From the IMG/VR virus record IMGVR_UViG_3300049794_000047: a stretch of 64,000 nt of DNA. One strand, written 5' to 3'. Numbering within the stretch: position 1 is the stretch's first letter; each line of letters starts with the position of its first letter. Positions 9,683 through 45,924 of the stretch are shown here, in pieces. Below the pieces are notes generated by a model. That model was not told where the DNA came from. It did not search any database and was given only the letters and a program-made list of their open reading frames with translations. The DNA is from a virus. Its lineage: Duplodnaviria; Caudoviricetes. Both the position numbers and the translations under genes were made by a program.

Positions 9683-10338
9683 GGCATCACCAGGCGCGAG
9701 AACTCGGCCTCGACCCCGAACTCCTCGATCGCGTGCACGATGCAGCTCAGGTTCCACAGGAGCACCTTCGCGAGCACCTCGTTCACCTGCGCCGCGAACA
9801 GCTTGGAGCGCACGCTGCCGCCGAACTTCGCCTTCATCGCGCCGAACGTCGACTCGACGTTGCTGCGCCGGTGGTAGTGCCTGAGGAACTCCTCGGCCTT
9901 GAGGTCGAAGTAGGCCCACATCTTCCGCCAGTGCTCGTTCGGGTGGTCCATCTCGCGGCTGTTCGACTTGAACGGCACGAAGGGCAGGGCGCCGACCGCG
10001 GCGATCGCATCGAGATTGGGCTCGGCCAGGTACGCCTTGTCGGCGCTGACCTCCCTCATCAGGAAGCGCCGGGCCGTCGCGTGGACGAGATCTTTGAACT
10101 GGAGCGAGTCGCCAGATCCGGTGCCCGTGCCGATCGTGACGCGCGCGGCGGTCACGACGTTCGTGAGCGTCCCGGTCGCGGCGTGCAGCTTCACCCAGTC
10201 GTGGATGAATCGCTGCTCCTTGTGCTTCGCGGCCCGCGAGCCGTGTCTCGTGCGAGATGGGCCTGGCGCGCGACAGATCCTTGATCCGACGATCGAGGTC
10301 AGCGTGCTCCAACTCGTGGATCCGGTCGCACTGCTCAA
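9679..10338 (-). pseudogene. N-terminally truncated DDE transposase (IS4/IS5-superfamily-like)
   Basis: WVKLHA, DSLQF, VSADKAY, YHRRSNVESTFGAMKAKFG, WNL motifs; the N-terminal part is missing. Confidence 0.8.
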
Positions 10339-13300: not shown

Positions 13301-13862
13301 GCCAGCACGAACCGGCGCTGCGTGCCAGGAATCTGCTGACCGTGCACCCACAACGGGTCGCCGGGTGCGAGCTCGAGCGTGAGCATCGGCTGGGGCTCGG
13401 CCACGCCGGGGGTGATCGCGATGATGGGTCGGCCGTCAGGCAGGATGTACTTGGTGCGGGTCATAAGCCAACTCAGCTGTCCGAGGGGCGTGCAGTTGCA
13501 GCCGTGATGGCTCTCCGACACAGTGCCTCAAGTCCTGACCGTGTGTGAGGCAATCGCAACAACCGACGACGGCGCAGGATGTTTCGCGCTCGGCTGTAAG
13601 AGCCAAAGGACACAGTATCCGCATCGCTGGCATCGAGTTCACCGATCTTTGGATCGAAGAACAAGTCAGGGCGCCCGCAGGGCGCCCGCAGGGCGTGAGT
13701 AACCGTCGTGAGATCGACATTGCGGCCAACTCGTAGGCTTGATAGCGTTTCGTTTCTCGATGGGAGGCCCCTTCGTTGTCCAGGCCAAACAGCACCAGAC
13801 CGATGTTTCGGCGTGGCACCGTGAGCAAGTGACCGATCTCATGCGCCGGCCACTACAGGTTA

Positions 13863-13948
13863 GGGGCTGGACTTTATTAACTTGGTCATTTGAACGATTC
13901 CCCGACGAAGATCCACCAGAAATGACCAGGTTATTTCGTTCCAGCCCC
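13863..13948 (-). mobile_element. 86-bp MITE copy 3
   Basis: TIRs plus TTA duplication. Confidence 0.9.
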
Positions 13949-14852
13949 TTACCGCTTGCTCGCGTTCAGAATGGCGACACAGCGCGCACGCGCTTCGGCC
14001 CGTTCCGCGAGTTGCTTTGGGCTCGTGTCATACGTCACGCGCATCGCGGCGATACACCATGCCTTGGTGTTGAGCGAGGAGAGCGGGGGGCTACCAAGCG
14101 CGAGGATTTGCTCGTCGGTGATCGTCTCGGCAGTGACAGTACCCTTGAACCGTGCGGGATGAGAGGCCGGGTCGTTAAGGCGCGGACAAGGCTGGTAGAT
14201 CGGCACGCGGCGCTTGCCATGCAACTCATCCACGATTCGATGGCCCTTGACGGTCAGCCGTGCATGACAGACACCGCAGCGCATCTACTTGCGCTCCTGG
14301 GCGGGCCAGTCCGTGCGCGCTGCCAACGGCTTTGTACACGTCGTAGAATTCTGCCGGGATGATGTTGTTGACGATGCGCGCTGACCCGAGGCACACGCCG
14401 TACTCTTCAGTACGTTGGATGTCAACCGAATAGGTGTGATTCATACAGTGCTCCAAGGGAGCAACCAAGCCACCCTGGGTAGTTCAGTACCCGTGTCTCT
14501 GGGCCCCTGGGAAGAAACGACCATGGTCAACTCGCTCCGAACTTTGCTCCCGGCGCGAAGGCCAGGAACGCGTCGATCATCGCGATGTGGCGGGCCACTG
14601 GATCCGGGCTGGCCCATTCGGGCGGCACCGTGTAGCAGTCGTTGTCGGTCAGGCACGAATCCTCAAGGTACGCGTGACCTGCCCAGATGACCGCGTCCCA
14701 GCCAAGATCACGACAGTGCTGCTCGTACCACTCGACGATGACGGCGGCGTTCCCGCTAAACACCTTGGCACGCCCAAGGCCAGGCCCCTCAGCGTCAGGA
14801 TTGCCGACGAGCGGAAACGCTTCGAAGTGCGAGTAGAGACACAGATCGTGAC

Positions 14853-15466: not shown

Positions 15467-15634
15467 ATGGTTGCCACAAAGGACAAACAAGGCTTGGCCG
15501 TGCTCGTCCAGGTAAAGATCAACCGACGCGCGGCTCACCTCCTCCGCAAGCGCGCGAAACGTGCCCTGCGTACACAGGCGAGCTACCTCCGCGCTCTCAT
15601 CTACCGCGACCTCGGACTCATTGAGGCCGATTAA
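15467..15634 (+). CDS. Small ribbon-helix-helix-like regulator (55 aa; absent from the ORF track)
   Basis: MVATKDKQGLAVLVQVKINRRAAHLLRKRAKRALRTQASYLRALIYRDLGLIEAD*: alternating beta strand followed by two helices. Confidence 0.6.
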   Translation: MVATKDKQGLAVLVQVKINRRAAHLLRKRAKRALRTQASYLRALIYRDLGLIEAD

Positions 15635-15720
15635 GGGGCTGGAACGAAATAACCTGGTCATTTCTGGTGGATCTTCGTCGGGGAATCGTTCAAATGACCA
15701 AGTTAATAAAGTCCAGCCCC
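15635..15720 (+). mobile_element. 86-bp MITE copy 4
   Basis: TIRs; TAA duplication at the stop codon of the RHH ORF. Confidence 0.9.
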
Positions 15721-15766
15721 TAAGAGTGTTTCGCCCTCGATGAACTGAACCTGGAGAAGCTCTCCC

Positions 15767-16457: not shown

Positions 16458-18572
16458 ATGCTCGACAATACGACCGACACGACCGCCGCCGACACGACCT
16501 CCGCCAGTACTACAACCATTCCGCCAAAAGCGCTCAAGAAGCGCGCCCGCAAGACCTCGACCAAGCCTACACGGATCTACAGCTATCGGATCTTGCCTCC
16601 TGAGGATCCAGAGCACCGGAGGCTGGTCGTCGAGCAGTTCTGGCTGGCGCACCAGTACCGTTGCCGGCTGACCGAGATCGAGATCGAGCAGCGCAGCCGC
16701 TTCCGTGCAATCGACCTGGATCACCCGCTCACGCGCGAAGCGACCTCCCACTGGGAGGCGCAGAGCGCGGCGCTCGACGCGACCTATGCGGCGCTGCGCG
16801 CAGCAAAGGCTGGCCGCGCCCCCGAGCATCGCGACGATGAAGCGATCAAGCAGCATCTGAGGTCGCTGAAGGGGGCCTGCACCAAGGCATGGCGTGACGT
16901 CAAGGCAGCGCGCGCACAGCCCGAGGTGAAGGCCCACCATCAGCCGCGCTACGCCGCGGCTCGAGAGACGACCGCTGAGCAACGCCTCGCCGCGCGAGCG
17001 TCGTTCTCTGCCAGAGGTCTGATGCACGGCACGTACATGTGCATCGAGCACGCCGTGGAACGATCCGTCGACTCGACGGGGCGCCCTCCAAAATTCCTTC
17101 GTTATGAGGGCGAGGGTTCGATTGGGCGCCAGTTGCCACGGACGCGAGACAAGAACGATCGGCTCTACAGCATTACGGCAGATGACCTCTACTCCGGGGA
17201 CGACAGTCGCGTGCGGATGACACCCCTGCCCGTGGGCTGGGAGCAATTGGCGCGGACCGCGCGGCGCCGGATCGCCAAGCCGTACCGTGGGCACGCCAAA
17301 CGTCAGCGTCACGGCGACAGTTGGCAGGAGATCCCGGCCCGCCTCAACGGTCAATACCTCGAGATGCAGTTCGGCTGGGGTCCGGCGAAGCGGCCAAGCG
17401 CCTGGATCCGTTTCCCCCTCACGCACCATCGCCGGATGCCCGAGGACGCCGAGATCTTGTGGGTGTACGTCCACCGCTGGCGCGTCGGGATCCACTACGA
17501 GTGGCGGGTGCAGCTCACAATCGAGAGTGAGACGTTTCACCGGCCACAGGTCCCGATCGCGGTCGGTGGCACCTGCGCGATCGACATTGGCTGGCGACGA
17601 ATCTTCGACACGGACGGAAGTCAGATCGGCCTGCGCGTGGCCTACCTGGTCGACGAGCATGGGCAGGAGCGCGAGATCCGCGCGCCGGACGGTCTCTGGC
17701 AGCGGCTTGCGAAGATTTACTCGATCGCGCAGATCCGCTCTCGAGAGCTCGATGCTGCACGCGATCGCCTGGTCGTCTGGATCAGCGATCGGCCGTTGCC
17801 CCCATGGTTCACCGACCGCGCCAAGGGGCTCGCGATGTGGCGAGCGCCGCGCAAAATGCAACGTCTCATTGACACCTGGCAGCGGGAGGAGAATCGTTTC
17901 GAGGACGACGCGGCGGCGCTCACCATGCTCCAGGCCTGGGCGAAGCACGATCGGCACCTCGGGAACTGGGAAGCCCACATGCGCGATCGAACGATCGCCC
18001 ACCGGCGCGAGGTGTGGCGTCAGGTCGCCGCTGAATTGGCACGCACGTACCAGACGATCCTCGTCGAGGACGGGCTGTGCCGATCGGAGGGCCGCGAGCG
18101 CCAGATGAAGATTGTGGACATCGAGGGTTGGGACAAACGTCCCCCAGAGGAGGGCGACCCGCACGAGGGGCGCGAGCAGCGTCGTCAGTCGCGGATGGCC
18201 GCGCCCGGTGAGCTGCGCCTGGCCATCTCTCACGCGACCCACAAGACTGCGTCCACTGTGATCGATGTGGCGCGAAGCAAGAAGTCGACGCGCGAGTGCT
18301 CCTGGTGCGGACACGATCAAGAGCACGCCAACTTTGCGGTCTCGATTGAGATCCAGTGTGAGGGCTGTGGGCGCAGTTGGGATCAGGACGCGAATGCAGC
18401 CCGCAATCTCCTGCACCACCGCGGTCTGACGAGTGGACAGGTACCACCGATCCCTACGAGCGGTCCTGTGCTACTCCTTGACGGGCAGGCGCGCGCACAA
18501 GGCAAACGGGGGAAACGACGCGGCGATGCAGGTAGAGGGCGTCGGCGGGAGGTTAGAGAGACGACCGTTTGA
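16458..18572 (+). CDS. cas12: Compact type V CRISPR effector, Cas12m (V-M/V-U1)-like, TnpB-derived, 704 aa
   Basis: RuvC-I AIDIGWR, RuvC-II ILVED, AAPGELR, Zn finger CSWC..CEGC, RuvC-III DQDANAARN; N-terminal EQFWLAH, RYEGEGSIGRQL and HRRMPEDAEI resemble Cas12m as I recall it. ATG follows GAAGGATAAGAGG; the CRISPR array starts 60 bp downstream. Confidence 0.85.
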   Translation: MLDNTTDTTAADTTSASTTTIPPKALKKRARKTSTKPTRIYSYRILPPEDPEHRRLVVEQFWLAHQYRCRLTEIEIEQRSRFRAIDLDHPLTREATSHWEAQSAALDATYAALRAAKAGRAPEHRDDEAIKQHLRSLKGACTKAWRDVKAARAQPEVKAHHQPRYAAARETTAEQRLAARASFSARGLMHGTYMCIEHAVERSVDSTGRPPKFLRYEGEGSIGRQLPRTRDKNDRLYSITADDLYSGDDSRVRMTPLPVGWEQLARTARRRIAKPYRGHAKRQRHGDSWQEIPARLNGQYLEMQFGWGPAKRPSAWIRFPLTHHRRMPEDAEILWVYVHRWRVGIHYEWRVQLTIESETFHRPQVPIAVGGTCAIDIGWRRIFDTDGSQIGLRVAYLVDEHGQEREIRAPDGLWQRLAKIYSIAQIRSRELDAARDRLVVWISDRPLPPWFTDRAKGLAMWRAPRKMQRLIDTWQREENRFEDDAAALTMLQAWAKHDRHLGNWEAHMRDRTIAHRREVWRQVAAELARTYQTILVEDGLCRSEGRERQMKIVDIEGWDKRPPEEGDPHEGREQRRQSRMAAPGELRLAISHATHKTASTVIDVARSKKSTRECSWCGHDQEHANFAVSIEIQCEGCGRSWDQDANAARNLLHHRGLTSGQVPPIPTSGPVLLLDGQARAQGKRGKRRGDAGRGRRREVRETTV

Positions 18573-18632: not shown

Positions 18633-19471
18633 GTGATGGAGCTTGCCCGAGCGGTTGACGTTCGGGACGCGTCGCGCTGCCGATTCACAGCGACGGCGGG
18701 GGATAGAGCTTGCCCGAGCGGTTGACGTTCGGGACCTGCGATAGTCGCCCACACGCAGGCGGCTGCAGGCGGTGATAGAGCTTGCCCGAGCGGTTGACGT
18801 TCGGGACCGCATAGCATGTCTGGCACACGGACCTGCGCGCACCGGGTGATAGAACTTGCCCGAGCGGTTGACGTTCGGGACGGTGAGCCGATCCCACGGA
18901 TCCACGTCGCGCCGCGGAGGTGATAGAGCTTGCCCGAGCGGTTGACGTTCGGGACTCGTGCCAGATCGAGAGACCATCGTGTGATAGAGCTTGCCCGAAC
19001 GGTTGACGTTCGGGACTCCGGCTCGTCTCCGTAGCGGACGTACACTGTGCTTAGAGCTTGCCTGAGCGGTTGACGTTCGGGACGAACGCGGTCAGGCGTG
19101 CCGACGGCGGGTACGAGATGTTTGCCCGAGCGGTTGACGTTCGGGACTCCGGCGAAAGAATCTTCCTGGGAGTCTGCCCGAGCGGTTGACGTTTTGGGAC
19201 CTGACCACGTCCACGAAGCCGCGTGATTGAGCCTGCCCGAGGGGTCGACGTTCGGGACTGTCAGTGCGAAACTCATGCTGTCCGCAGGATGCACGTGCTG
19301 GAACTTACCAAGCGGTCGTCAGCCCCTGCGCGCGGTTCTATGCTTCGGGTTGATGGGAGGTGCCCGCACAAGATAAGCACAGGGAACAACACAGCTTTGC
19401 AGGGAAAGGTGGCTATGGATCTGGCCGATCTGGGAGTGATGGAGCCTGCCCAAACGGTTGACGTTCGGGAC
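18633..19471 (+). CRISPR. CRISPR array 1 (about 10 repeats, a degenerate tail, and one further repeat at 19436-19471)
   Basis: 36-nt repeat GTGATRGAGCTTGCCCGAGCGGTTGACGTTCGGGAC; spacers 19-38 nt; decays toward the 3' end. Confidence 0.95.
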
Positions 19472-21680: not shown

Positions 21681-22077
21681 CCGAACGTTCGGGACCTCGG
21701 CCTGCTCGCTGGCATGCTCCGCAGGGCAAATGTGATAGAGCCTGCCCGAACGATTGACGCTCGGGACACCAAGCGCGCGAGGGAACTACAGGCACGAATT
21801 CGAGGGACAGCATCTGCCCGAACGGTTGACGTTCGGGATGAAGGCAAGTGGTCGCCCTCTGGGATAGAGCCTGCCCGAACGGTTGACGTTCGGGACGGAG
21901 CGGCCAAGCGCGAAGCAGCGCGTGGGGCGTCAAGGTGATAGAGCTTGCCCGAGCAGTTGACATTCGGGACCAACCGGCAGAAGTGCGCCGATCGCGCGTC
22001 GTGATAGAGCCTACCCGAGCGTTTGACAGGGGTCGGCGTACATGATGGAATCTGCCTGAACGGTTGACGTTCGGGAC
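21681..22077 (+). CRISPR. CRISPR array 2 (degenerate, about 7 repeats)
   Basis: Variants of the same 36-nt repeat at about 21732, 21803, 21861, 21935, 22001 and 22042. Confidence 0.85.
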
Positions 22078-22248
22078 GACAGGTAGATCTTGACCGCTCA
22101 GAATTCAGACTTCAATGATGTCGCAGGAAACGACGCGGAGACTCAGGTAAAAAGCACTGTCGTGACAGGGGGAGGGCGCGAGACCCCTTTGAATAGAGTC
22201 CGTGCAAGTGTAGTAAAGAATGTAATGGCAATTGAATAGCTGTTGACT

Positions 22249-23098
22249 GTTGATGGGGCTTGCCCGAGCGGTTGACGTTCGGGCAATCTGTACGACGCGC
22301 TGTGCCCAGGCTGGGTGATGGGGCCTGCCCGAACGACACCCGTTCGGGACCCCTGAGGCACGTCGCGGCTGATGTTGGCACTACGCGTGATAGAGTTTGC
22401 CCAAAACGGTTGACGTTTGGGGCCGGCAACCTGGCTGGTCAGGATCACGGGAGTGATAGAGCCTGCCCGAGCGGTTGACGTTCGGGACCACCGCGCGAGG
22501 ATGACGACACGACAGATTAACCGGCCTGCCCGAGCGGTTGACGTTTGGGACGATGAGCACTTCCTTGGGGCGCTAGAGCCTGTCCGAACGGTTGATATTG
22601 GTAATGCGGATACTGCTCGCGACAGCCGCTTGTACCGGCTGTAATAGAGCCCGCCCGAGCGGTTGACGTTTGGGACAAGGAGACAGCAACTGCGTACGAA
22701 GTGCTGGGCAATGTGATAGAGCCTGTTCGAACGGTTGACGTTCGGGACAACCCGGCGGTGCTGAAAGCGCTGTCGGTTTCTTTGTGATAGCACCTGCCCG
22801 AACGGTTGACGTTCGGGACATCATCGGCGGAAGTTAGGGGCTGGAACGAAATAACCTGGTCATTTCTGGTGGATCTTCGTCGGGGAATCGTTCAAATGAC
22901 CAAGTTAATAAAGTCCAGCCCCTTAGCGAGATGGAGCTTGTCCGAGCGGTTGACGTTCGGGACGTAAGGCTCGGCCACCTGCCGGGTCGTGCTGGAGCTC
23001 GCCCGAGCGGTTGACGTTCGGGACTGCGGGTCTTTGCCCCGCTTTGGCGGGGCCTCGATCGCAAGATAGAGCTTGCCCGAGCGGTTGACGTTCGGGAT
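22249..23098 (+). CRISPR. CRISPR array 3 (about 12 repeats, interrupted by a MITE)
   Basis: AT-rich leader ending AATTGAATAGCTGTTGACT followed by repeat variants. Confidence 0.9.
22837..22922 (+). mobile_element. 86-bp MITE copy 5, inside a CRISPR spacer
   Basis: TIRs plus TTA duplication between two repeats. Confidence 0.9.
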
Positions 23099-23332
23099 CG
23101 CAATCCAAGCAGGGGTGCTCGTCGGTCAACCGGGCTGCGTGACGACGCCAACCCACGCGAGCGGTCCTATGCGTCGAGTTGATGGGAAGGCGCTCGCACA
23201 AGATAAGCACAAGAAACGACACAGCTTTGCAGGTAAGGTCAATGTCGAAATGTTGAAGAGCCGTCTGTTTGAATGGGGTGCTCGCGATCAGTGCAGTAAG
23301 ATCGCGAAATGATAATCGAATAGTTGTTAGCT

Positions 23333-25577
23333 GTGATGGAGCCTGCCCGAACGGTTGACGTTTGGGACAAGTGGGACGGTGACGACGTGCCGGCCTTCAT
23401 GCGTGTGATGGAGCCTGCCCAAACGGTTGACGTTTGGGACGCTGGATGCGCGATGAGGACGACGAGCAGGCTCGAAGTGATGGAGCCTGCCCAAACGGTT
23501 GACGTTTGGGACCTACGCGAATGCGAGCGGTACTTTTGAATCACCGAGGCGTGATGGAGCCTGCCCAAACGGTTGACGTTTGGGATCCGGCGTGCGGACC
23601 GTGCGCCTGTGGTGCAAGCGGGAGTGATGGAGCCTGCCCAAACGGTTGACGTTTGGGACCCAAAGTCACCGAGGCGAACCGACACGGGAGATACGGCGTG
23701 ATGGAGCCTGCCCGAACGGTTGACGTTTGGGACGGGTGGACAGTGATCACCGCCATCGTAGCGCTCGCGTGATGGAGCCTGCCCGAACGGTTGACGTTTG
23801 GGACAGCCGTCGCCACGGATCCACCGCATCCACCTGCCTCATGTGATGGAGCCTGCCCGAACGGTTGACGTTTGGGACGAGAAGCAGGTCGCGGACACGC
23901 GGCGGCTGGTCAACGTGATGGAGCCTGCCCGAGCGGTTGACGTTTGGGACGCGGACAGCCCGACGCCCCCCTGATGAGCCTGCCCGAACGGTTGACGTTT
24001 GGGACGCGCCGTACGCCGTCGTGGGCACGGTGAATCCATTGGTGATGGGGCCTGCCCGAACGGTTGACGTGTGGGACGAGCTGGTGAGCACTTCAAACCC
24101 GGCATGCCGACTTGTGATGGCGCCTGCCCGAACGGTTGACGTTTGGGACTCGTCGCCACGCGTCCGATGCTCCCGGAAGACGCACGTGATGGAGCCTGCC
24201 CGAACGGTTGACGTTTGGGACCGGTGATGGGGCGTCATGGATCGTCGCCCTTCACGCGTGATGGAGCCTGTCCGAACGGTTGACGTTCGGGACAACCCGA
24301 CGGTGCTGAAAGTGCCGTCGGTTTCTTTGTGATAGCACCTGTCCGAACGGTTGACGTTCGGGACGCCGCGTGGCTCCGCGTGTGATAGAGCCTGCCTGAA
24401 CGGTTGACGTTTGGGGCCAACGTAAGGACGCGGCGCGTAGATCTGAATCGCCGTTGTGATAGAGCCTGCCTGAACGGTTGAGGCCAGGAGCGTGCGCGAT
24501 CGACGTCGCCATGCTCGCGGTGATAGAGCCTGCCCGAACGGTTGATGCTTCGGGACTATCCGACTGAACTGCACAAGCGCGGATTCAACGGCATGATGGA
24601 GACTGCCCGAATGGTTGACGTTTAGGACCAGGCTGCGCCGACAGCAACCGCGCGCCGGTTAAGCGTGATGGAGCCTGCCCGCGCGGTTGACGCTCGGGAC
24701 ACCTGTACGACGCGATGCGAGGAATGGACACAGGCCGGGTGATGGAGTTTGTCTAAGCGACTGACGTTATGGACGTGAGAATTCCGACGCGCACAAGATG
24801 GAGTGCGCTAATAGGCGCTTGCCCCAATGGTTGAACCCCTCGACTACTTCACCAAACTCGCGAGGAAAACTGCGTGATAGAGCCTGCCCAAACGGTTGAC
24901 GTTTGGGACAACAGCGGGCACTCTAACAGACTCGGCGCGCGCCTGGTGATAGAACCTGCCCAAACGGTTGACGTTTTGGGACGCATGAGTCTCCACTCCC
25001 ACATCGACCTAGCTTTTGTGATAGAGTCTGCCCAAACGGTTGACGTTTGGGACCAGGTGCTCGGCATTGGGCCCGTCGATGTCGCCGCTGGTGATAGAGC
25101 CTGCCCAAACGGTTGACGTTTGGGACAAGTCAAGCCTGGGTGACGTGATAGAGCCTGCCCAAACGTTTGACGTTTGGGACAAGAGATCCACCAGGCGATC
25201 GCGCCGCTGGCACGCGTGATAGAGCCTGCCCAAACGGTTGACGTTTGGGACCGTCCCACAACACTGCCAACTACGTCGCCGCGTGATCGTGATGGAGCCT
25301 GCCCAAACGGTTGACGTTTGGGACAACCGTACGAACCTCGCGAGTTGTGATGGAGCCTGCTCGAACGGTTGACGTTCGGGACCTTACGAACCCACGGGAA
25401 AACGAGGATCGCTTTCTGGTGATGGAGCCTGCTCGAGCGGTTAATGTTTGGAACGGTCGGGTTTGTGGTTGATTGCCTTGACGGCAGCGTGTGATGGAGC
25501 CTACTCGAACGGTTGACGTTCGGGGACACCTGTACGACGCGCGGCACAGGATAGAGTCTGCCCAAACGGTTGACGCT
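23333..25577 (+). CRISPR. CRISPR array 4/5 (about 33 repeats in two blocks; second block starts at 24874)
   Basis: Repeat GTGATRGAGCCTGCCCRAACGGTTGACGTTYGGGAC, spacers mostly 35-38 nt; each block decays at its 3' end. Confidence 0.95.
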
Positions 25578-25649
25578 CACACCAACGGACTACAACTGAC
25601 GCGCGTTCCATTCCGGTTAGAACCCACGAGGGCACTCGGTTGTTCCAGC

Positions 25650-26318: not shown

Positions 26319-26930
26319 ATGGCTTACGACGGACTCACAACCGGACAGGCGGCCCTCTACTTGAAACGTCATCCCAAGACCCTTCAGGGATGGGACCGTG
26401 ACGGTTCGCTTCCCGCCAAACGCACGTCGACAGGACGACGCTACTGGCTGAAGACGGACCTGGATCGTTATCTCGGCAAAACGAGTCTCGTGGTAGAGCG
26501 TGTGAAGATCGCCTATTGTCGTGTCTCCTCCCAGGCACAACGGGCTGACCTCAAAAATCAGAGGGCCGTCCTGGATGACTTCTGCGCGAAACAGGGCTTC
26601 TCGAATGTCGAGCACATCGCAGAGATCGGCGGGGGCCTGAACTTCAAACGAAAACTCTTTCTGTCGATCGTGGATCGTGTCGTCAGCGGCGCGGTGTCGC
26701 ATCTCGTGATTGCACACAGGGATCGCTTGACACGGTTCGGCTTTGATCTGCTCAAGCACCTCTGTGACACACATGATTGTGCACTGCACGCCCTTGACCA
26801 AGAGAAACTCTCGCCAGAGCGAGAGATGGGCGAAGACCTGAGGACGATCGTCCACTGCTTCTCGGCACGGCTCGAGGGTCTGCGAAACTACCACAAGTCG
26901 CTTCAGGCGGCTCTAGCGAGCAGGACGTAG
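26319..26930 (+). mobile_element. tnpA: IS607-family serine transposase TnpA (no tnpB downstream)
   Basis: MerR-like HTH (TLQGWDRDG..RTSTGRRY), IAYCRVSS, DLKNQ, EIGGGLNFKR, HRDRLTRFGF. Confidence 0.9.
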
Positions 26931-30296: not shown

Positions 30297-31139
30297 ATGG
30301 AAACCAAGATGACTCTGGCACAAGACGAAGGTCCAGGCCCAACGCCGACATTCGACATCACGCTTGGGCACAGCGCTCGGCACTCACAGGGTCTCCTGCG
30401 ACTTCGTGCCGGGATCGAGATCTCCGGCACCACTGAGGCCACCCTGACCGCGCGCCCGACCAGCGCGTTTTCGCCCGCGCAGGCTGGCGATTTTACCGCC
30501 ATTCGCGCGTCGATTTGACATCATTGATTTGAAGGTTGGGTTTGTCAGTGTGTTCGCTGACGACAGTAAGGGGCTGGACTTTATTAACTTGGTCATTTGA
30601 ACGATTCCCCGACGAAGATCCACCAGAAATGACCAGGTTATTTCGTTCCAGCCCCTAACGGTGCCGTCGCGAGGCATGCTGACGGCAGTACCTGTCTATA
30701 CTGTCCCGCGCGCCGGTACGAGGCCGTCTATCGATTCAAGCACACAACGTCAGTGCTAGACATCTTGGCCAACCCTGGACCTGCGCGGGCGCTCGTTACC
30801 TCGTCCGCGCCCAGCATACTCGGTCACGAGATCTCGGCGAGGACCTGCCATGCATGGCAGGACATTTCGATCACGGTGCGCGCCTATGAGGGCCACCCCA
30901 GTGACTTCGAGGCGATTCTCCTGGGTGACTTTCGAGAAGCGGGAATCTGTCGCCAGGGGCACGACGGCGAGGACATTTTCGTTGACGATGTAGTCAGGGC
31001 ATACCTCATGACACCGGACGGACGGTACGACCCCACGCTCGACGACGTGCTTCGCCACGTGCAGGGCCTTTGCCCTGCCTGGGTAACAATGCGCGATGAC
31101 GTGAGCCGTCTCGTCGAGCTGTACACGTCGGGTGGTTGA
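30297..31139 (+). pseudogene. RPQ-domain family gene broken by a frameshift and a MITE
   Basis: ATLTARPTSAFSP / RRLAI..FDIIDLKVG; after removing MITE 6 this reads in frame into ORF 30753 (QDISITV..FEAILLG). Confidence 0.65.
30570..30655 (-). mobile_element. 86-bp MITE copy 6
   Basis: TIRs plus TAA duplication. Confidence 0.9.
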
Positions 31140-33511: not shown

Positions 33512-33642
33512 GACGCGCCCCCTGCCGGCACGAGCGCATCTGGCCAGGACGTCGGCGCCAACCCCGCAGTGAAGATCGCCTTCACGACGCAGCACAGGTT
33601 GTGGGCGACGCACGAGGTTCCGAACGTCAATGCCGAGGCTAA

Positions 33643-33728
33643 GGGGCTGGAACGAAATAACCTGGTCATTTCTGGTGGATCTTCGTCGGGGAATCGTTCA
33701 AATGACCAAGTTAATAAAGTCCAGCCCC
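33643..33728 (+). mobile_element. 86-bp MITE copy 7
   Basis: TIRs plus TAA duplication. Confidence 0.9.
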
Positions 33729-33917
33729 TAAGCGCCGGCTGCGCCACGCTGCGGCGACGCTTTGAGACGTTCGTCGTACGCGCCGACGGTTCTGATCCAA
33801 ACAATCACGATGGGATATCTACAAAACAGGTCGATCGGAAGAAAGTTCCCGGGAAGGACGATCTATCGGACTGAAAAACCGTTGGCCCTTGGTAAAACAG
33901 GCGTTATACTGTCCGCC

Positions 33918-44715: not shown

Positions 44716-44967
44716 CCACGATGAGAATCCTGCTCCGCTACTGGTGGCGCCTCCGCGCGAGGGGGCACGCGAACCTCTATCACCCGGCCGATGTCACGCC
44801 GACCGTCGACGGGTTCTTGGTTGAGTGCTCGTGCGGTGGGCATGGTCAGGTCCAGAGCAACGGCGACCGGACTTCCACGGTGACCGATACGACCTGTCCG
44901 CTGTGGGCTTGGCGATGGCGATGCCTCCTGGTTTCGATGCCGGCCGCGCGGACGATCGCGAGGCTAA

Positions 44968-45053
44968 GGGGCTGGAACGAAATAACCTGGTCATTTCTGG
45001 TGGATCTTCGTCGGGGAATCGTTCAAATGACCAAGTTAATAAAGTCCAGCCCC
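44968..45053 (+). mobile_element. 86-bp MITE copy 11
   Basis: TAA duplication; lies in the 3' end of ORF 44712. Confidence 0.9.
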
Positions 45054-45924
45054 TAACCAGATCGAAAGGACCGACGAGATGAGCCTGATGGATGCCAAGC
45101 GATTGCTGCAATGGAACGTCGTTACCGAAGCGCTCGCCGATGCGGAGGTCGACCCCGAGACGATCGCGATCGTCGAAAGCGCTCGCATTGTCAGCGAGAT
45201 AGTCCACAGCATGGCGGGTATGCTCATGGGCGGTGCTGACACCAAGCAGGCGAAGAACTACGTCAAGATCGAGATGATCGGGTTGATCCCGCCGTTCGAG
45301 CGTGCGTACATCGAGCTGGTCAGGCCGGGCGGGAAAACCAGTCACGAGTTGCGCGAGCTGCTTCGTGACAGGCTGGCGCACGTCAGGAAGCTCCTCTCCG
45401 AGGGCTGTCCGAAGGACGCGCTCCGCGAGGGCATCATCCAGGGGATCGACGAGGATCTTGCGAGCGAGTCGCCATGAGCGGCACCGACCAGCGCGGCATC
45501 CATGCCAAGTTTCACGTCGAGCGAACCGATGGATCGTCCAAGCCGGGCGGCGCGCACGAGGGCTGCTCGTACTTCGTGCTCAACCTGGAACATGACCCGT
45601 TCGCGCGCGCGGCGTTGAAGGTGTACGCGACCGCATGCGCCGAAGTGCAGCCCAGGCTCTCACGCGACCTGACCAGGATCGCGATGGCCGAACGGAGCAA
45701 GCCTGCGGAATGCGGTTGCCGCGAAGCGATGTGCCCGCACACGGGCGTCGCGCTTGGTCCGTCGGAGACCGCCGACCTTCTGATGAAGATGACGAGGAAA
45801 ACATGACCGAGCTGGACTACATCATCGACGTTCACCGCCGCGAGGACCGCCGAGCGCAGGCCGTGTTTGACCTGACGGTCGCTGCGCTGATCGCAATTGC
45901 GTACGGCGTGTACCGCCTGATCGG

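Follow-up and report, generated by a model that had tools for sequence, protein, structure and literature searches.

A terminator-like hairpin spacer duplicated in a type V-M-like CRISPR locus is probably an ordinary acquired spacer copied by repeat recombination

Introduction

Transcription signals carried by spacers have been described in Sulfolobus, where spacers of foreign origin sometimes bring promoter or terminator motifs that disturb long pre-crRNA transcripts (Deng et al., PMC3315313; Blombach et al., PMC10883916). Premature termination has been proposed to enrich young spacers (PMC10883916; PMC5749868). As summarized in PMC10883916, bacterial CRISPR arrays are subject to Rho-dependent termination and Nus/boxA antitermination, and premature termination limits their distal spacers (Stringer et al. 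2020). In an engineered type I-E array of E. coli, a hairpin followed by a T tract in the CRISPR unit terminates transcription efficiently and gives usable crRNA (PMC4499155). Characterised Cas12m binds DNA in a PAM-dependent manner without cleaving it and processes its own pre-crRNA, and the PAM of GoCas12m is TTN (PMC11013384).

In this study, we analysed a 64,000-nt stretch of viral DNA (Caudoviricetes; IMG/VR record IMGVR_UViG_3300049794_000047), called the window below, which carries two copies of a spacer that resembles an intrinsic terminator. The locus recalls the Sulfolobus arrays in that the signal would lie in a spacer. However, the Sulfolobus signals are archaeal T-rich motifs and cryptic promoters with Cbp1/Cren7 handling (PMC3315313; PMC10883916), whereas the candidate terminator here is of the bacterial hairpin-plus-U type and takes up an entire spacer in a class 2 array that a mobile element carries. 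In the account of the arrays of Stringer et al. 2020 given in PMC10883916, termination is Rho-dependent and diffuse, whereas here a spacer would hold one putative intrinsic site. The E. coli construct is artificial, with the repeat as its hairpin and eight T as its tail (PMC4499155); in this locus the spacer itself forms the hairpin, and the tail is interrupted. Known type V-M systems (PMC11013384, PMC10442227) are similar in effector homology, in a 36-nt repeat with a 3' hairpin and in a TTN-type PAM, the last judged from a relative's spacer. They differ from this locus in its larger effector (704 aa), its decaying repeats, its several sub-arrays with copied leaders, and its location on a large soil element. 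Our literature search found no description of a natural punctuation spacer.

Results

A type V-M-like locus with several sub-arrays

A Cas12m-family effector adjoins the arrays, which hold about 61 repeats in several sub-arrays, three of them with a leader copy. The effector and the two sub-arrays that contain the hairpin spacer (copies 1 and 2) are as follows.

16458..18572, plus strand: Cas12m-like effector of 704 aa; best PDB matches are Cas12m (E 6e-43), PADLOC Cas12u1 at E 5e-76
22142..23098, plus strand: sub-array C with a leader copy; leader motif at 22230; decayed repeats flank copy 1 on either side
23252..25583, plus strand: sub-array D with a leader copy; leader motif at 23314; copy 2 follows 14 clean repeats and precedes 7 decayed ones, after which come a second clean block (24874-25324) and a decayed tail

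The effector, the leaders and a PAM-flanked protospacer agree on the plus strand as the crRNA strand. The protospacer (window 10175-10211) belongs to a spacer of the relative L107 (L107 13540-13576); the two agree at 33/37 over window positions 10206-10175, and TTC lies on the 5' side. This flank matches the TTN PAM of GoCas12m (PMC11013384) and fixes the plus strand as the crRNA strand, and the hairpin described below is thus oriented so that termination would be possible. The same match shows that the locus family samples spacers from related elements, and is evidence of conflict between related large elements. Close relatives, with effectors 70-99% identical, lie on contigs of 100-430 kb that are rich in small uncharacterised genes. 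Several close relatives of the Cas12m effector, about 810 aa long (P0008, P0009, P0011, P0013 and P0015-P0017), carry a match to an IS66 transposase domain (PF03050), and so does one at L110 10001-12442, which has a 70-repeat array behind it.

The arrays change quickly between sister strains. Locus L001 is 99.4% identical to the window over 8 kb including the effector, yet only the first spacer is in common (L001 7876-9035 against window 18633-19471); the arrays differ from the second spacer on and so appear to reshuffle fast. Several L001 spacers agree with sequence present in runs X2 and X3. Within the window, the spacers at 22286, 24701 and 25527 begin with a common 13-14-nt stretch at the 5' end and then diverge, a similarity near the maximum of shuffled sequences that possibly reflects recombination; spacers are also partly shared at 18882, 23805 and 24150. 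The spacer at 19084-19120 is common to L002 (effector 83% identical), where it is duplicated (14362-14396 and 18175-18210), and is far better conserved across lineages than the hairpin spacer. Near-identical spacers with scattered substitutions at L002 13999-14034 and L004 11312 possibly stem from separate acquisitions from one conserved gene.

A MITE-like element of about 92 bp with terminal inverted repeats occurs in at least six near-identical copies (13860-13951, 15632-15723, 22833-22926, 30560-30656, 33640-33732 and 44965-45058), and its depth is very high in run X1. A gene at 26319-26930, about 750 nt past the arrays, combines an HTH domain with a serine resolvase and is IS607 TnpA-like by domain order.

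Two spacers fold as terminator-like hairpins

The two copies of the hairpin spacer are 35 nt long and flanked by 36-nt repeats; intact neighbouring spacers measure 35-38 nt.

22749..22783, plus strand: spacer copy 1, with an 11-bp hairpin at 22752-22776, a GAA loop and a U-rich tail, in the decayed sub-array C
24294..24328, plus strand: spacer copy 2, with an 11-bp hairpin at 24297-24321 and a U-rich tail, where the young block of sub-array D meets the old one

An earlier note on this DNA had described these two spacers with an 11-bp stem, a GAA loop and TTTCTTT, and both folding and a search of the window confirmed them. The search gave just these two matches at up to 3 mismatches (0 expected). 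Copy 1 folds at -17.7 kcal/mol (z = -4.1 against dinucleotide shuffles) and copy 2 at -17.9 kcal/mol (z = -4.6). By z-score these are the most significant folds among 53 spacers of the window, and the copies are the two top-ranking terminator-like sites on the plus strand of all 64 kb. Seven of the 11 pairs are G-C, TTTCTTT follows directly 3' of the stem in both copies, and the tail has 6 U in 8 positions with a break at position 4. With AA upstream, this is a typical terminator arrangement: a stable G+C-rich hairpin and an adjoining U-rich tract on the transcribed strand. The stem persists when the spacer is folded together with both flanking repeats, and the minus strand folds far more poorly and has no U tail. 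The d'Aubenton Carafa discriminant d was estimated at about 16. A fluoride riboswitch was considered and rejected, its Rfam score being below threshold. Both copies are spanned by contigs of run X1 that show 0 differences. This makes an assembly error less likely, although the argument is weakened by the fact that X1 is possibly the source sample. Appreciable termination of transcription by the hairpin has, by prediction, roughly even odds.

A stem of this kind could also have arisen by chance or in situ, by template switching, with a T run beside it by chance, so that the source was no terminator. Four further spacers of the set have stems of 10-11 pairs without tails, and AGCACC of the repeat that follows the hairpin is complementary to its 5' arm over 7 bp, a hint of template switching. 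However, the combination of stem, adjoining tail and upstream AA, with z below -4, is typical of terminators, and we regard an origin without one as quite unlikely.

The hairpin bears on guide function as well. The predicted unpaired probability of the guide region is 0.27, versus 0.43-0.63 in three control spacers, so the spacer probably makes a poor guide whose guide region is mostly paired. This speaks against a further possibility, that the spacer works as a guide directed at a terminator, conserved or repeated, in a competitor or host, the differences between the copies mirroring target variation through separate acquisitions or tracking. Cas12m acts by binding (PMC11013384), the locus family targets related elements, and real terminators would be expected to vary with their pairing kept, all of which would suit such a guide. 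Against it, the hairpin is predicted to block the guide, and spacer structure impairs Cas12a arrays (PMC8478413). Protospacer searches found no target, and the markers shared by the two copies point to one acquisition followed by duplication. We consider this possibility very unlikely.

The two copies descend from one repeat-spacer-repeat unit

The duplicated unit is a repeat-spacer-repeat of 107 nt whose copies differ by six transitions, divided equally between the repeats and the spacer (three each). Its parts and immediate neighbours are listed below.

22713..22748, plus strand: repeat upstream of copy 1, with markers T14 and C31
22784..22819, plus strand: variant repeat downstream of copy 1, with C8 and A9
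22833..22926, no strand assigned: inverted-repeat element of about 92 bp (MITE-like), inserted in the spacer after copy 1's downstream repeat
24258..24293, plus strand: chimeric repeat upstream of copy 2, with G6 of sub-array D at its 5' end and T14 and C31 of sub-array C at its 3' end
24329..24364, plus strand: variant repeat downstream of copy 2, with C8, A9, T14 and C31
24365..24381, plus strand: truncated 17-nt spacer after copy 2, 35 nt long behind an ordinary D-type repeat in X2 and X3 contigs

The derived markers T14, C31 and C8A9 are shared on both sides of the spacer, which indicates one acquisition and a later duplication; the two units have common ancestry. The markers of the chimeric repeat place a likely crossover between repeat positions 7 and 13. 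In X2 and X3, contigs link a D-type repeat to the 35-nt form of the next spacer, a moderate hint since the shorter side is 34 letters. Taken together, the chimeric markers, the truncated spacer and these contigs suggest that recombination between repeats brought copy 2 to its present place, with sub-array C as the probable donor side.

The earlier note had also pointed to the same unusual repeat after both copies. CA at positions 8-9 does follow each copy, as one duplication predicts, but the variant, though rare in this locus, is also found after an unrelated spacer, in a degenerate third repeat at 21804, and it recurs in the relatives L003, L006 and L102. In L010 (12070-14530), which encodes a more distant Cas12m (46%), GCACCTG is the standard form of the repeat. 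The value of the variant as a marker special to the hairpin spacer is weakened by these occurrences. A role as antiterminator was rejected as well: the variant repeat is transcribed past the termination point, and the 7-bp duplex of its AGCACC with the 5' arm (-9.5) is weaker than the hairpin. Template switching or chance may account for this complementarity.

Among the related loci, spacers are routinely found in duplicate with slight divergence. Although copies 1 and 2 are the sole full-length duplicated spacer of the window, six related loci hold 21 spacers duplicated within the locus, with 26 differences over 704 sites, of which 22 (85%) are transitions. The duplicated spacers of the relatives were no more structured than the single ones (P = 0.71). 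Divergence between the copies is 5.6% over the unit, versus about 0.6% between sister strains in flanking genes, which suggests that the unit is old or derived from a diverged element.

Retention of the stem lies within the neutral range

The copies differ at spacer positions 7, 20 and 23, and each difference interchanges a Watson-Crick and a G-U pair. This observation of the earlier note holds; all three differences are simple transitions in the stem, and two-sided compensatory changes number 0. When three changes were simulated neutrally from the inferred ancestor, all 11 pairs stayed intact in 0.21-0.29 of the runs, and pairs plus tail in 0.09-0.12. Conditioned on all three changes falling in the stem, the pairs stayed intact in 0.06-0.10; the joint probability of changes falling in the stem and keeping its pairs is 0.014-0.024 if the question is framed that narrowly. 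The inferred ancestor folds at -20.5 kcal/mol, and the stability that each copy has lost since then is about what neutral change costs on average. With 3/35 differences against 3/72 in the repeats of the unit, the spacer is no better conserved than they are. Deamination with a strand bias (C>T and A>G), which could make changes look pair-keeping, was rejected, as C>T equals G>A at the non-stem repeat positions. These results indicate that retention of the stem fits the neutral expectation and that selection is poorly supported; two copies give low power, so that weak selection is still conceivable.

Repeat decay and related loci do not favour a punctuation spacer

The leading reading of the earlier note was a punctuation spacer that ends pre-crRNA transcription and silences older downstream spacers. 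In its full form, a domesticated terminator would have been selected and reused twice to end pre-crRNA, favour young Cas12m guides and insulate the sub-arrays. Several observations agree with it. The hairpin is on the correct strand, with a strong stem, the tail directly after it and a d value of about 16, and the three changes all fall in the stem and keep its pairing. The number of private changes per repeat rises exactly at copy 2, from a mean of 0.5 upstream to 3.9 in the next seven repeats (P = 0.002), and copy 1 lies about 470 nt ahead of the next leader. A dilution rationale for such a device has been published (PMC10883916; PMC5749868).

However, the step is reversed at copy 1, where upstream repeats carry 4.1 private changes and downstream repeats 2.3. 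Further downstream of copy 2 there is a clean block of seven repeats with 0.6 private changes per repeat, and sub-array A, L002, L004, L107 and L110 show the same kind of step from clean to decayed repeats with no terminator. Run X2 holds the decayed block 24388-24800 with 3 substitutions, and one X2 contig bridges the site of copy 2. The decay behind copy 2 is thus probably older than the insertion. X2 depth is low over 23914-24300, an observation that was not used by itself.

Relatives give a similar picture. The hairpin spacer is absent from all related loci fetched, and 16 related loci, some of them with 70-108 repeats, contain no strong sense terminator among their 436 spacers; one antisense terminator spacer was found, in L110. 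From bacterial and element DNA, 0.03-0.43 terminator-bearing spacers are expected by chance per 430. One such family in about 490 spacers is therefore unremarkable, the more so when picked from a genome-wide scan. Together with the neutral range of the stem changes and the lack of compensatory change, these findings leave a selected punctuation spacer unlikely. Its mobile version, in which the captured terminator, domesticated as a repeat-spacer-repeat full stop, would pass from one sub-array to another by recombination between repeats and be selected for restricting Cas12m loading to young guides, is likewise improbable.

Source of the spacer

No protospacer was found in IMG/VR, GTDB, JGI metagenomes, INPHARED, PLSDB or 401 Myxococcota genomes, the best matches being 27/35. 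The search of viral databases proposed by the earlier note was blank or at chance level in IMG/VR and INPHARED; matches in INPHARED and PLSDB had E 0.4 or worse. In the Myxococcota genomes the spacer had 4 matches at 3 mismatches and the control had 3, and the repeat was not found in them as an array. The rest of the window contained no protospacer either; a 15-nt match at 47528-47514 is not a hairpin. Almost no other array spacer had a target among the fetched loci, so the blank result is uninformative. In the GTDB search the same hairpin core formed perfect hairpins in unrelated bacteria, which fits an origin from a generic terminator.

Discussion

We favour, with a probability of about 70%, an ordinary spacer that was acquired from terminator-bearing DNA, copied by recombination between repeats and left to drift. 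The source DNA, most likely of a competing large phage or element or of its host, would have contained an intrinsic terminator in sense orientation, and a fragment of it would have been acquired once. The unit of repeat, spacer and variant repeat would then have been copied from a context of the sub-array C type into sub-array D, an event that would have clipped 18 nt off the next spacer. Thereafter the copies may have drifted by transitions, which in a G-C-rich stem often yield G-U pairs. The result would be a poor guide that possibly halts part of the read-through transcription, and nothing shows that it is kept for that. It is plausible that the hairpin physically ends some transcripts, perhaps partially, as such a by-product.

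This reading corresponds to the alternative in the earlier note, a terminator-derived spacer that was later duplicated. It is the best fit, and the shared markers bear out a single duplication, but a protospacer in support of the source was not found. The punctuation reading of that note did not hold up, given the structure within the neutral range, the count of 0/436 in relatives, the reversed decay at copy 1 and the decayed block in X2 without copy 2.

That spacers may carry transcription signals as a side effect is an idea already published (PMC3315313; PMC10883916). A selected, portable punctuation spacer would be new, and the evidence presented here does not favour it. If neutral, the hairpin spacer would be a clean bacterial-type example of spacers importing transcription signals, and a natural test case for the effect of one spacer on downstream crRNA levels. 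If selected, it would represent a new heritable way to tune the depth of CRISPR memory and would offer a direct test of the published dilution model.
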